Shown here: piece after piece, positions 27,679 to 31,165 of the stretch | Layout of the letters: every line of letters starts with the position of its first letter | Numbering within the stretch: the stretch's first letter is position 1 | From: a virus | DNA: 64,000 nucleotides | IMG/VR virus record: IMGVR_UViG_3300045988_142974 | Coordinates: 32,001-96,000 of that record | Reading direction: 5' to 3' (one strand) | Position numbers and translations under genes: made by a program | The notes under the pieces: generated by a model | Told to the model about the DNA's origin: nothing | Databases searched by the model: none | The model's input: only the letters and a program-made list of their open reading frames with translations

Positions 27679-28554
27679 TTACAAGGAAAACTCCGATTTT
27701 CTATTTGTGGTTATACGCTTTTTATTATATTTTTTATATCTTTTCAAGTCATTTTGTTTTCTACAATCATCGCAGTATAATCGTTTATTAGCTGTTTTTT
27801 CAATAATTCCACCACATCGTTTACAACGAGAATATTTATTATTGTGTCCACGCTTAACAGAGTAATAGTCTTTTTGGTAGTTTTGAAAATACGCATTTAA
27901 CGATCTATTGATGTACTTAACATAAAAATTATCTTCAGTAATAAAATCATAGTTATTTACAATCTGAGTCTTATCTTCATATTCTCCAATCAGTTTGCAA
28001 TTATCAAAACATTTTCTCAAAAATCCTTCAACAACCTTTTTATATTCATTCCAAGATAATATCATTTTCTCCTTTTGAAAACGTTGTTTGAGTTTTTCGG
28101 CTTCATCAATTACATCGTCAATAATACCAGTGGTTGTATTTGCATCCATCTCAGTTCCAGATAACCAATTGAAGTACATTAGCTTTGGTTTCTTTAATAA
28201 ATCCATGTACTCCTTATTGAGAATTACTTCTTTATCAAAATATCTTGTATAAATATTATTGATTTTCTGTCTGATAATAGCGCACCAATTTTCATCTTTA
28301 GTCATTGACTTGTAATATCTGTATTCAATTCCTGACCATGTATCAAATATTCGTCCAAGTTCTGTATCAAGTAAATCCTTTCTGACTTTAAAATGAATTG
28401 TTTTAATATATGTACGCCTTTTATTATCAGAAGCCCATATTGAGGAGCAGAACGAGTTGAATATCTCGTCCTTTACCTTATTATTCTCTGCTTCTTTGTA
28501 ATCTTCTATAATTTCATATAGAAATGTTTCATTACAGTCGTAAATATGTATCAC
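27679..28554 (-). CDS. hypothetical protein with C-terminal zinc ribbon, coupled to the RNA polymerase gene
   Basis: 291 aa. The GTG start overlaps the 3' end of 28532..31165 by 23 nt. CKRCGG...CDDC followed by a basic tail. Confidence 0.6.
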   Translation of the reverse strand: [291 protein letters not shown]

Positions 28555-31165
28555 CTACCTCAAATTCATAGTATTTTCCAAGATATTCATATGAATTGTC
28601 CGTCTTATAAGGAACTTCTCTTATTGATATATTTCTTTTTGGATTCGTGTTATTCTTGAGATTTTCAATGATATAATCGCCATAAGCTGACCATGCAAGA
28701 GATTTGCTAATAGAAACAGAAGAGTAAGAAGCTTTAATAACATAGTTTGCTATAATATTTTCAGGCAATTCAATCTCATTTATGAGTTTCGTTTTATACT
28801 CATTTACGACTTCATCCATATTGAATTTATGGTCTTCATCATCCGACTTATCTCTATGTAGATTCAGATGCTGCTTAATATCAACCGCATACATATTTAT
28901 AAACTTCCTGCATTTCTTTAAGACTTTTCTATCAAACAAATCCAAATCATTATCAATAATTAAACATCTAGTATCAACCAAATCAATTTTATTATCCCAT
29001 AAGATATTTTTCTTTTCCCAAGTTTCAATATAATCACACAACTCATTCATAGGAGAAGGAGAGTGATATGCATTAAGATATTCTTTGTCCTCGTCAGAAG
29101 TATCTCTATTCTTTTTGATTATATTCATATAGGATTTCATTTTTTTAGGATAGTTATGAAGTAAGAAATATGGAAGCTGTTTAAGATGCTTTCTAAGACC
29201 TGAATTCATATGCCATCTGAATCCCGTTTTAAGGAAGTCAATTTCTTTGCCCTGAAAAATTCTTAGAAGAGAAGAGTAATCAGAATATAATTTTTGAATA
29301 TCTGGATTGGTCGTATATTTATTCTCTATACTTGTGGCAACATTAGTAATTTCACCAATACGATTATCTCTTGTCATTACTTCATACTCAATAAGATTCT
29401 CTTTTGTATATGGTTTTGATTGAGCGGTTACTTTGTCTTCAATATCAAGTATGATATGCTTATCTACCTTTGAATCAATAATGATAGGATCGTTGCTTAA
29501 ATAGAAAATATCACCATCAAAATCTGCGCCGCCTTGCTGTGGAGCTGATACATCATACATATTAAACATTACTACATCTTGGTCTTTAAAATAATCAAAC
29601 CATTTTGTAAGAATGTCATTTCGTACAATCTTAATCTTATTTACCTCTGATGGATCAACAAGCGGAGAACGGAATGAACAACAATATCCTGGTTCAAAAT
29701 TTGCTGTATATAATTCTCTTTCTCCAAGACAACCAACTGGTTCTTCACCAACGGCATACTGAAGATAACCAATCATATCACCAACACCTGTATGATAAAA
29801 CCCTGAACAATAAATTTTACCAACTTTTGCTTCATCAATAGACTTTTTGAGTTTTCTATAAATGAATTGCTTAACAGCAGGATCTTTTAACATAACATCA
29901 TTTACCAATGCAGCTTCAAGATATTTACTTTCTGGCTCATAATCTTCTGTATCAGTAATTCCCATGAATTTATATGTATAAAATTTATCACCTTTAATGA
30001 TTTTTTCATACATATTAGTGGTATATTTTGCAAGCTTAATGATTTTTCCATCATTCTTAGAATCTAATATGTCATAGTCCTTTTTTGTTTTATCTGTATA
30101 ACATTTGACATATTTATCATTCCAAAGATCCAGACATTGTAAATACTGAAAATTCATTCGTGTATATTTATTTAAATGCTTAATATGATGACTATATTTA
30201 CTGATACCAAGTTTGAATTCATACTTCCTAACAGTATTCATATATTCAATCCATGCGTTTTCACCATAAGTTGATTTAAAAATCTTATGCCCTTTAAACA
30301 TCGAAATATTCCAAATGCAATCTACATCATCAATATTATGAACATGCCCATAAATGTCAGTAATAGTGGTGTAACCCCATTCTTTAAGAATTTGTTTAAA
30401 TGGTACATATACAGAATATCCTTTAATAAATGGTAAACGTACCTGTGTTCCAATAACTTTGTAGTCTAATCCAAGTTGCTCACTCACAGTATTCATAAAG
30501 TTTTCTTCATGACAGCCACATCCGTCAAAAGGTGATAATCCAATATCTTTTAATCCTTCTTCAATTTCTCTGGTTTTATATTTCTTTTTCTTACCAGTAT
30601 TTTCATCAACAAATTCTTTTTCTCTTTCAACTACGTATTTAATAAGCTGATTTTTCAACGTTTTTTCATATTCACCTATAATTACAATATTAGGCATATA
30701 ATCTTTGATAAGAGTACATGAACTGAATGGTAAACATCTCTGAGCTTCGTACTTGGAAATAACACATTCATCAATTTTAATATCCATTTGAGTAATCAAA
30801 TATAACTCATCAAAAATTTCATCACATACAAATGCAGTAATTCCATCTTTACCTTGTGAAGCTGATTTGCCAAAACGAGAATAGTGAATTCCATTATATG
30901 TAAATCCATCATTTAGAATCTTTCTAAGTGATTCCTCTTGCTTTGGATTCTTCTTTGCAACAACCAACATAAGTTCACTTATATGAGATGATGATTCACC
31001 ACGAAGTCTCTGAATCTGATCAAATAAAGGAGAATCACCTTGCTTGATAAGATATTCTTTTTTGATTTCTGTATCTCTATTAATCTGAATATTAAAATCT
31101 CCATCAATAAGTTCTCTTATTGGGATTTTTACTAATGTATACTGTACCTTTTTTATAATTATCAC
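28532..31165 (-). CDS. YonO/RdRP-like single-subunit double-psi beta-barrel RNA polymerase
   Basis: VSAPQQGGADFDGDIFYLSNDP carries the universal DxDGD metal-binding motif. It is preceded by CCSFRSPLVDPSEV, the counterpart of the RNPxxHPGD strand of eukaryotic-type RdRPs. 877 aa, similar in size to SPbeta YonO. Confidence 0.75.
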   Translation of the reverse strand: MIIIKKVQYTLVKIPIRELIDGDFNIQINRDTEIKKEYLIKQGDSPLFDQIQRLRGESSSHISELMLVVAKKNPKQEESLRKILNDGFTYNGIHYSRFGKSASQGKDGITAFVCDEIFDELYLITQMDIKIDECVISKYEAQRCLPFSSCTLIKDYMPNIVIIGEYEKTLKNQLIKYVVEREKEFVDENTGKKKKYKTREIEEGLKDIGLSPFDGCGCHEENFMNTVSEQLGLDYKVIGTQVRLPFIKGYSVYVPFKQILKEWGYTTITDIYGHVHNIDDVDCIWNISMFKGHKIFKSTYGENAWIEYMNTVRKYEFKLGISKYSHHIKHLNKYTRMNFQYLQCLDLWNDKYVKCYTDKTKKDYDILDSKNDGKIIKLAKYTTNMYEKIIKGDKFYTYKFMGITDTEDYEPESKYLEAALVNDVMLKDPAVKQFIYRKLKKSIDEAKVGKIYCSGFYHTGVGDMIGYLQYAVGEEPVGCLGERELYTANFEPGYCCSFRSPLVDPSEVNKIKIVRNDILTKWFDYFKDQDVVMFNMYDVSAPQQGGADFDGDIFYLSNDPIIIDSKVDKHIILDIEDKVTAQSKPYTKENLIEYEVMTRDNRIGEITNVATSIENKYTTNPDIQKLYSDYSSLLRIFQGKEIDFLKTGFRWHMNSGLRKHLKQLPYFLLHNYPKKMKSYMNIIKKNRDTSDEDKEYLNAYHSPSPMNELCDYIETWEKKNILWDNKIDLVDTRCLIIDNDLDLFDRKVLKKCRKFINMYAVDIKQHLNLHRDKSDDEDHKFNMDEVVNEYKTKLINEIELPENIIANYVIKASYSSVSISKSLAWSAYGDYIIENLKNNTNPKRNISIREVPYKTDNSYEYLGKYYEFEVGDTYLRL

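Follow-up and report, generated by a model that had tools for sequence, protein, structure and literature searches.

The polymerase gene and its overlapping companion

Analysis of a 64,000-nucleotide (nt) stretch of the IMG/VR virus record IMGVR_UViG_3300045988_142974 (positions 32,001 to 96,000 of that record, hereafter the window) revealed two overlapping genes on the minus strand, which are listed with the features around them in Table 1. The longer gene encodes a protein of 877 amino acids (aa) related to YonO, the RNA polymerase of Bacillus phage SPbeta, and to the RNA-dependent RNA polymerases (RdRPs) found in eukaryotes. The shorter gene lies directly downstream and encodes a 291-aa protein (the partner) which carries a zinc ribbon and a basic helix at its C-terminus. 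Taken together, our results suggest a YonO-type enzyme that is quite probably built from two subunits. An earlier reading of the DNA letters (the original prediction) had grouped both genes with a zinc-ribbon gene upstream of them as a three-gene transcription module. The downstream partner was found to be linked to the polymerase family-wide, whereas the upstream gene turned out to be variable and did not keep its place in the module.

Table 1. Coordinates and main properties of the polymerase pair and of nearby features of the window (ORF, open reading frame).
Feature	Position	Strand	Remarks
Predicted catalytic subunit, YonO/RdRP-type two-barrel RNA polymerase	28532..31165	-	877 aa as listed
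First barrel (beta-like), catalytic residues	30293..30526	-	D214 (PFDGCG), K248 (RLPFIKG), K291 (SMFKG)
Second barrel (beta-prime-like), catalytic residues	29510..29671	-	R499, P501 (FRSPLV); Mg-binding D548-F-D550-G-D552
C-terminal extension of the predicted catalytic subunit (IREVPYKTDNSYEYLGKYYEFEV...)	28535..28630	-	three short predicted beta-strands
Partner gene (putative second subunit)	27679..28554	-	291 aa as listed
Partner body, aa 1-236 (~235 aa)	27847..28554	-	mainly helical; no detectable relatives outside the family
Partner C-terminal module, aa 237-291	27679..27846	-	zinc ribbon (C244, C247, C261, C264) and basic helix
Weak hairpin and T-tract, then 21-nt element TATATATCACATATGGAAAAC (27648..27628)	27628..27690	-	candidate late promoter/initiation site
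Head of the presumed late region, syntenic with SPbeta yonN-yonK-yonJ	22919..27483	-	tRNA-Met, GOLLD-like RNA, tRNA-Pro, small ORFs, endolysin
GOLLD-like RNA	26558..27008	-	flanked by tRNA-Met and tRNA-Pro; the polymerase pair lies directly upstream
YonK-like ORF	25690..25890	-	weak match, E 0.009, below cut-off
YonJ-like exonuclease	24447..25682	-	phrog_284 at 1e-72
HU gene	22919..23203	-	PF00216 at 2e-15
Upstream zinc-ribbon ORF	31169..31645	-	158 aa (142 aa from the internal ATG at 31597)

The 877-aa protein was matched by the Pfam RdRP family PF05183 with 42.9 bits (curated cut-off 23.8; E=3.7e-11) over residues 76-711, corresponding to profile positions 54-580 of 582. BLASTP aligned its residues 47-861 with residues 95-815 of SPbeta YonO at 23% identity (E=2e-18). 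When 50,697 phage records were searched by tblastn, 41 hits were obtained, among them YonO of SPbeta and phi3T and also proteins of Bacillus, Thomasclavelia, Enterocloster, Clostridium and Psychrobacillus phages. The eight invariant residues that define two-barrel polymerases have been listed previously (PMC2919709). All of them (D214, K248, K291, R499, P501, D548, D550 and D552) were invariant in our alignments of 12 and 54 diverse homologues. The aspartate and two lysines of the first barrel correspond to the invariants of the Rpb2 D837/K979/K987 type, and the residues of the second barrel are equivalent to R446/P448 and the DxDxD motif of Rpb1 (PMC2919709). The DxDGD magnesium loop GGADFDGDIFYLS (GGADFDGD), on which the original prediction was built, is thus present as D548, D550 and D552. 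The FRSPLVDPSEV strand named with it is also present and contains R499 and P501, but it precedes the loop by ~49 residues and not by ~60 as had been stated.

The AlphaFold model of the polymerase, computed from the 54-sequence alignment, reached a mean predicted local distance difference test (pLDDT) of 88.6 and a predicted template modelling score (pTM) of 0.85. Foldseek against the PDB placed QDE-1 and plant RDR2 on top (E ~1e-18, probability 1.00) with a template modelling (TM) score of ~0.5 over ~900 columns. P74-26 gp62 followed at E 3e-6, and the large subunits of multisubunit polymerases matched weakly. Since the model matches QDE-1/RDR2 and no other family fits better, the two-barrel fold and the YonO/RdRP-like identity proposed earlier were upheld. 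By sequence and predicted structure, it is near certain that the 877-aa protein is a two-barrel RNA polymerase of the YonO/eukaryotic-RdRP type, and by analogy with YonO its activity would be DNA-dependent. The protein is predicted to have both double-psi beta-barrels, together with the magnesium site and the basic residues that nucleotide addition requires. RNA synthesis that is DNA-templated and rifampicin-resistant, and a dependence of late transcripts on the enzyme, are known for SPbeta YonO only.

The polymerase genes of relatives were repeatedly found broken by intron-like inserts, several of which contain ORFs resembling homing endonucleases of the HNH or GIY-YIG type. Such inserts were seen at loci L049 (MT835481, 411..4181), L053 (CB473P1), L005/L006 (Goe14/phi3T), L094, L108, L109, L121, L129 and L131. 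One insert sits exactly within the catalytic motif (DFD|GD), and a recurrent insert site lies near position ~600 of the hidden Markov model (HMM).

The listed frames overlap by 23 nt, as originally described, with the partner in the +1 frame relative to the polymerase, and both listed GTG starts sit within Shine-Dalgarno-like GGTGA sequences (31154..31165 and 28543..28554, minus strand). The polymerase frame of many close relatives begins right behind an in-frame TGA and then offers no ATG, GTG or TTG for 64 conserved codons. The conserved fourth codon of the polymerase, ATA, aligns with the ATG of more distant relatives. The same holds for the partner, in which ATT (ATA in some lineages) aligns with ATG in other lineages. 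These alignments suggest ATA 31156..31154 as the probable start of the polymerase and ATT 28545..28543 as that of the partner, in which case the true overlap would be 14 nt. In the window family, both codons come behind a strong Shine-Dalgarno sequence of the GGTGA type. As the listed GTG corresponds to a TGA stop in many close relatives, gene callers give a truncated polymerase of 812 aa. From this arrangement of start sites, the polymerase and its partner look translationally coupled.

The zinc-ribbon tail in fused and separate forms

An exhaustive search of 1.84 billion representative proteins yielded 148 representatives of the partner family, nearly all of them 270-330 aa long and conserved over the full length. 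In the AlphaFold model of the window partner (pLDDT 94.4, pTM 0.87), the body is mostly helical and includes a small sheet, residues 241-252 form the ribbon hairpin, and a long basic helix spans residues 262-290. For the body, no match was found in Pfam, PHROGs, the PDB sequence profile, PDB structures or BFVD. The sequence matches that were obtained concerned zinc ribbons only, the best Foldseek hit against the PDB had an E of 0.47, and BFVD also gave no match. Similarity to a sigma-70 or TFIIB-like factor was not detected, as Pfam returned weak generic zinc ribbons, the PDB profile search returned ribbons at E of at least 0.03 and Foldseek returned none. Database names such as 'RRN7/TFIIB zinc finger' given to relatives of the partner reflect the ribbon alone.

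The C-terminal module behaved differently from the body. C244, C247 and C261 were invariant and C264 nearly so in 44 members of the partner family, and the last ~55 residues fit the pattern CxxCG-x9-11-(Y)CxxC followed by a helix rich in K and R, confirming the zinc ribbon and basic tail that had been noticed in this protein. The tail aligned with residues 791-836 of YonO (BLASTP, 46 residues) at 48% identity (E=3e-5), compared with 23% for the catalytic cores. Furthermore, the alignment of the window polymerase to YonO stops at the residue just before the YonO ribbon, where the window polymerase ends. The HMM of the partner family matched YonO, phi3T, BUCT082, MT835481 and CB473P1 through the tail only (HMM positions ~228-285). 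We refer to the window partner family as class A and to the downstream proteins of the BUCT082/PMBT24/TR-TP1 type as class B. In hhalign comparisons of the two classes, the tail alone aligned (probability 94.5%, E=7e-8), and profile-profile comparison found the bodies unrelated. Sequence comparison therefore indicates that the partner tail, with its zinc ribbon and basic helix, and the C-terminus of single-chain YonO are homologous. A homology of the full-length partner to the YonO C-terminal region or to the class-B proteins was also considered and was ruled out, because only the ~55-residue tail was significant.

The tail occurs in two arrangements. It is fused to the C-terminus of the polymerase in SPbeta, phi3T, Psychrobacillus phage Perkons, Clostridium phage D-1873 and the metagenomic proteins P0387, P0479, P0484, P0487 and P0489. 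In the window family, in Bacillus phage BUCT082, in PMBT24 and CB473P1 from Enterocloster and in MT835481, the tail forms the C-terminal end of a separate protein of 240-290 aa, whose gene follows that of the polymerase immediately; MT836002 has it on a separate ORF ~1 kb downstream of the polymerase. When the 291-aa protein was used as the tblastn query against the same phage records, mostly YonO-carrying phages were recovered, with the match at the end of yonO. In nearly all of ~120 related loci, the partner gene lies directly downstream of the polymerase gene, overlapping it or within ~10 nt, and this linkage is kept as polymerase identity falls from 100% to 34%. The three members looked up as the most divergent of the partner family were all polymerase-linked: one follows the RdRP gene with a 1-nt overlap, one comes directly after a polymerase gene bearing an insert, and in the third two inserted DNA-methylase genes stand between polymerase and partner. 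The polymerase gene has an obligate companion in the partner gene. The partner is also more than a zinc-ribbon neighbour, because it carries a module belonging to YonO itself, and the proposal of a partner encoded downstream was thus borne out and sharpened.

A conserved element, LPxxxxxGxxEYLGxxY, closes the chain of essentially all non-fused polymerases. In the 54-sequence alignment, Y861, L862, G863 and Y866 were nearly invariant, and the AlphaFold model places strands at E846-851, E858-861 and E864-870. This EYLG element occupies the place of the zinc ribbon in the fused enzymes. It may serve the partner as a docking site, or it may be the relic of a ribbon that has lost its cysteines.

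BUCT082 (locus L050, 1716..6870) is a Spbetavirus in which the canonical single-chain yonO is replaced by the split type, consisting of a 924-aa core and a 278-aa class-B partner. Fused and split forms are therefore exchangeable within one phage genus. In the same phage, an extra ORF of 515 aa containing a zinc ribbon overlaps the start of the core. Two proteins of the partner family, P0328 (536 aa) and P0249 (466 aa), are fused to endonuclease domains of the GIY-YIG or HNH/AP2-like type. The zinc ribbon and basic tail occur twice in P0328, with the second copy at the extreme end of the protein, and this sequence suggests an endonuclease insertion with duplication of the tail-coding target.

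The presumed late region and a conserved element behind the gene pair

The polymerase pair belongs to a phage gene array on the minus strand, which extends for ~39 kb down to position 1 of the window (GC ~31%). Its members are ParB, a replication-initiator-like gene, a deoxycytidine monophosphate (dCMP) deaminase, small zinc-finger ORFs and the polymerase pair. Past the pair come two tRNAs around a large non-coding stretch, the YonK-like ORF, the YonJ-like metallophosphoesterase/exonuclease, the endolysin and HU, and further on HNH endonucleases, an integrase, more tRNAs, the large terminase and the portal. The endolysin, terminase and portal genes are thus all downstream of the pair. Around the pair, the array is syntenic with yonO-yonN-yonK-yonJ of SPbeta. 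The non-coding stretch was matched by the Rfam family RF02032 over the full model (1-416) with 83 bits (E=2e-21), which is below the gathering threshold of 150, and we call it GOLLD-like for this reason. In SPbeta, YonO transcribes the late genes from one start site located upstream of a non-coding RNA (ncRNA) and yonK (PMC5467207). The position of the GOLLD-like RNA parallels that of the unannotated ncRNA which heads this YonO-driven operon.

Directly behind the partner gene we found a 21-nt element that was kept 3-66 nt after the partner stop codon in lineages with 46-100% polymerase identity, with the lineage-specific variants TATATATACAGTATAGGnA and TATTTATCAGTATGGA. Down to ~53% polymerase identity, it is preceded by a weak hairpin, a T-tract and a -35-like TTTACA/TTTGTA located 16-17 nt upstream of the element. 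A weight-matrix scan of the 64-kb window gave one strong site with 23.3 bits; the next scored 13.3 bits, within the range of shuffled sequence. Of 60 distinct loci, 54 showed a simple two-block pattern of the element no farther than 120 nt from the partner stop, compared with 23 matches elsewhere in 1.56 Mb, an enrichment of ~500-fold. It should be said that the element was reached by eye from one marginal word, and that generic word sharing itself gave no signal: in the 1 kb downstream of the partner, word sharing among 18 lineages was not above that of shuffles. From its conservation and position, the element is a possible late promoter, which we put forward as a candidate at somewhat less than even chances.

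The original prediction had proposed a repeated motif, distinct from sigma-A promoters, upstream of positions 14076, 9128, 7297 and 4364. Such a motif was not found, and a single conserved element after the gene pair was found instead. Word enrichment in 21 intergenic segments of the late side gave nothing above background for a repeated late-operon motif; the best word, GACAATAAAATA, had 5 matches against 2.0 expected, and 5 were reached in 4 of 100 shuffles. The start site in SPbeta is bracketed by a published primer pair at 285-480 nt after yonN, and the resemblance of words in this interval to the window element had no statistical support.

A weak second copy of the two-block pattern, TATTTATTTTGTATAGG, was noticed at 24381..24397 (minus strand), where 77 nt separate the gene of the YonJ-like exonuclease from that of the endolysin, and it is found in close relatives too. 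It is below the weight-matrix threshold and may be due to chance. A distinct conserved non-coding element, (A/T)TAAGGGAG(A/T), was observed ~70-135 nt after the stop codon of the polymerase or the partner, upstream of the HU gene, in SPbeta, phi3T, D-1873, Perkons, PMBT24 and CB473P1. In SPbeta, phi3T and D-1873, it is preceded by TTGGTRCKACTRGGYTGARRG. The sites are located in loci L004 (7290..7375), L005/L006 (~4680..4770), L052 (~8300..8370), L051 (~4810), L002 (~8307) and L132 (~5034), and the element matches no Rfam family.

A proposed two-subunit late polymerase and the alternatives

As the overall explanation we favour, with moderate confidence, a late-gene enzyme of the YonO type that has two subunits and starts at the conserved element. 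The locus would encode a phage late-gene RNA polymerase divided over two translationally coupled genes, and a host-transcribed operon would yield the catalytic and the second subunit at low, coupled levels. The two products would then assemble into a heterodimeric polymerase. In this complex, the ribbon and basic helix may act as they do in cis in YonO, most plausibly by contacting nucleic acid or the core near the active-centre cleft, and the variable partner body may contribute something specific to the lineage, the most plausible role being to recognise or open promoters. Initiation by the holoenzyme would take place at the single conserved element that comes just after its own genes, and transcription from there would cover the late region with the GOLLD-like RNA, the tRNAs, the YonK-like and YonJ-like genes and the lysis, HU, packaging and structural genes. 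We infer the physical association of the two products, the roles of tail and body, and the promoter function of the element. A bolder version, tentative and to be doubted at present, is that the 291-aa protein is a dedicated sigma-like initiation subunit, in which the ribbon and helix serve as the anchor, at the site where YonO has this module in cis, and the exchangeable class-A or class-B body reads a lineage-specific promoter, here the TATATATCAnnTATGGAA element. If it were true, the RdRP/YonO branch would have its first described architecture of the holoenzyme type, and single-chain YonO would recognise its promoter via its own C-terminal tail.

SPbeta YonO is the known system closest to the window enzyme (Forrest et al. 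2017, PMC5467207). Both belong to the same family, align end to end and share the invariant catalytic residues. In both, an ncRNA region lies downstream of the polymerase, along with the genes for YonK, the exonuclease YonJ and HU and the late genes, and the zinc-ribbon/basic-tail module is common to the two systems. However, YonO is a single chain of 839 aa, while in the window the ribbon and tail are carried by a separate protein behind a novel body of ~235 aa and the catalytic chain ends in the EYLG beta-element. The cores have diverged to the low identity given above, and the host belongs to a gut clostridial lineage and not to Bacillus. The window enzyme does not have the ribbon in a single polypeptide and is therefore a split variant of YonO, not a canonical one. 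QDE-1 and RDR2 (PDB 2J7N, 7Y7R, 7ROZ and 7EU1) share with the window polymerase the PF05183 family, both barrels in one chain and the DxDGD loop, and they are its best structural matches. They differ from it in sequence (12-15% identity), in their function in RNA silencing with mostly RNA or single-stranded DNA templates, and in having neither such a zinc-ribbon tail partner nor a phage late-gene context. The non-virion enzymes of P23-45 (gp64) and P74-26 (gp62) and that of phi14:2 (gp66), a phage of the crAss-like group, are also single-chain phage two-barrel polymerases that recognise their own promoter motifs (PMC10770324), but they belong to another branch and are described as monomeric without a partner subunit, and their GC-rich or AT-rich promoter motifs are unrelated to the window element. 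A split arrangement is also seen in BUCT082, PMBT24, CB473P1 and the Thomasclavelia phage TR-TP1, where a gene for 210-280 aa follows directly upon the polymerase gene. The downstream protein has the zinc-ribbon tail in BUCT082 and PMBT24, and the polymerase has the EYLG-type C-terminus in BUCT082 and TR-TP1. The difference lies in the unrelated class-B body and, in TR-TP1 gp4, in the missing ribbon. In GenBank, the downstream protein of these four split relatives is hypothetical and was never annotated as a polymerase subunit.

Several points weigh against the two-subunit enzyme and its promoter. The link between the partner and YonO is a tail of ~50 residues, and zinc ribbons are short and common, although by sequence the similarity includes positions other than the cysteines and continues into the basic helix. 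In elongation assays, the single chain of YonO was active (PMC5467207), and no fusion of the partner body to the polymerase core was found among the long homologues. The class-B downstream proteins TR-TP1 gp4, L126, L128 and L130 carry no ribbon, so the tail is not universally required in trans. A beta-element is kept where YonO has its ribbon; evolutionary routes besides simple gene fission are therefore possible. As to the 21-nt element, its -35-like and -10-like features could make it a host sigma-A promoter, and it was not detectable in SPbeta-type or class-B relatives. On the other hand, its conservation through the presumed start region would be more typical of a promoter for a phage polymerase than of one for host sigma-A.

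The polymerase might instead be truly single-subunit and the 291-aa protein a free DNA-binding regulator, such as a late activator, a repressor or an anti-terminator, which forms no stable complex with it. The tail is indeed the only part common to the partner and YonO, the basic helix modelled after the zinc ribbon is a plausible nucleic-acid binder, and both the elongation by single-chain YonO (PMC5467207) and the class-B proteins without ribbon would suit a free regulator. We nevertheless regard it as unlikely, for the strict gene order with overlapping frames holds over 34-100% polymerase identity, the module is covalently part of the polymerase in the fused lineages, and the non-fused polymerases have a dedicated conserved C-terminal element which is absent from the fused ones. 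The partner might also have no part in transcription and share no more than a conserved operon with the polymerase; its function could then be replication, packaging, anti-defence or DNA binding of the homing-endonuclease kind, and the tail would be a mobile zinc-ribbon module. The body without recognisable fold or family, the polymerase genes as hotspots of homing-endonuclease inserts and the two partner homologues fused to GIY-YIG or HNH-like domains could all be read in this way. This seems improbable, because phages of Bacillus, Psychrobacillus and Clostridium carry the tail at the exact YonO-type C-terminus and lack an endonuclease at that place, the partner matches among phage records fall mostly on YonO-carrying phages at the polymerase end, and the partner was never seen unlinked from the polymerase in the loci examined.

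Two further alternatives concern the polymerase chain itself, and we consider each of them very improbable. Programmed ribosomal frameshifting would join the two ORFs into one chain of ~1,160 aa with a large insertion before the ribbon, which might be expected from the overlap, the +1 frame of the partner and its lack of a canonical ATG. Frameshifting was rejected as a candidate, because neither a slippery site nor a +1 site stimulated by a stop codon occurs in the overlap, a strong GGTGA Shine-Dalgarno sequence serves the partner alone and its ATT aligns with ATG in relatives, and other lineages have gaps of 3-10 nt, other relative frames or 2 kb of inserted genes between the two ORFs. A true RNA-dependent RNA polymerase acting on phage or host RNA is what the name of the Pfam family, the annotation of GenBank relatives and the closest solved structures, which are RNA-silencing RdRPs, would suggest. 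However, YonO is the only characterised phage member and is a processive DNA-dependent RNA polymerase for late genes (PMC5467207), the window is syntenic with the SPbeta late region, and QDE-1 uses DNA templates too, as seen in PDB entries with a DNA template.

The two-subunit YonO-type reading would bear on a question that has stood since 2017, namely by what means YonO locates its promoters and whether helper factors are required (PMC5467207). In the polymerase branch from which the RNA-silencing RdRPs of eukaryotes also arose, YonO is the one member from bacterial viruses that has been characterised, and it has been considered as a model of the single-chain ancestor of cellular RNA polymerases. 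The papers searched treat it as a factor-less single chain, "observed only with SPbeta". We found no YonO structure, promoter, partner or split form in the literature searched, the coverage of which was incomplete, so that an earlier description elsewhere is possible. The window locus, together with hundreds of relatives from gut metagenomes, provides three handles on the question. The zinc ribbon and basic helix form a module more conserved than the catalytic core, and its alternation between a fused and a separate protein marks it as functionally essential. The tightly linked second protein has a confidently predicted and previously unseen fold. The single conserved DNA element lies where the SPbeta enzyme is known to start. 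Besides, the annotation of these enzymes as "RNA-dependent RNA polymerase" and of the partner as "hypothetical" in databases can be corrected, and the YonO-type enzyme is seen to be common in human-gut phages.

For the upstream zinc-ribbon gene, the ORF named in the original prediction is present, but it reaches 31645, and the start given at 31597 is an internal ATG; the 877-aa and 291-aa ORFs are present as described. The gene was missing or replaced in many loci with 97-99% identical polymerases, Pfam matched its product with generic zinc ribbons only, and a comparison with phage genomes gave no polymerase-linked matches. By this comparison it is a variable accessory, and its lack of conservation beside 97-99% identical polymerases rules it out as a member of the module.

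No close relative of the window at the DNA level was found among GenBank phages. In IMG/VR, dozens of viral contigs of 80-217 kb encode polymerases 93-99% identical to that of the window, and the protein relatives of the polymerase come from Lachnospiraceae genomes and gut metagenomes. The explanation we favour, with the moderate confidence already expressed for it as a whole, includes that the phage is large, temperate and associated with gut Firmicutes of the Lachnospiraceae type. Free-standing genes for HNH or GIY-YIG homing endonucleases are unusually many in the window (978..1829, 14124..15404 and 21199..22080, minus strand). Eight tRNA genes were counted, two of them for tRNA-Trp, with tRNAs at 16725..19431, and the integrase gene (20111..21145) lies inside the late-side array. 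In the early region, a match to the type-P5 twister ribozyme was obtained at 41980..42054 (plus strand) with 49.3 bits, above the Rfam gathering threshold of 37.6.

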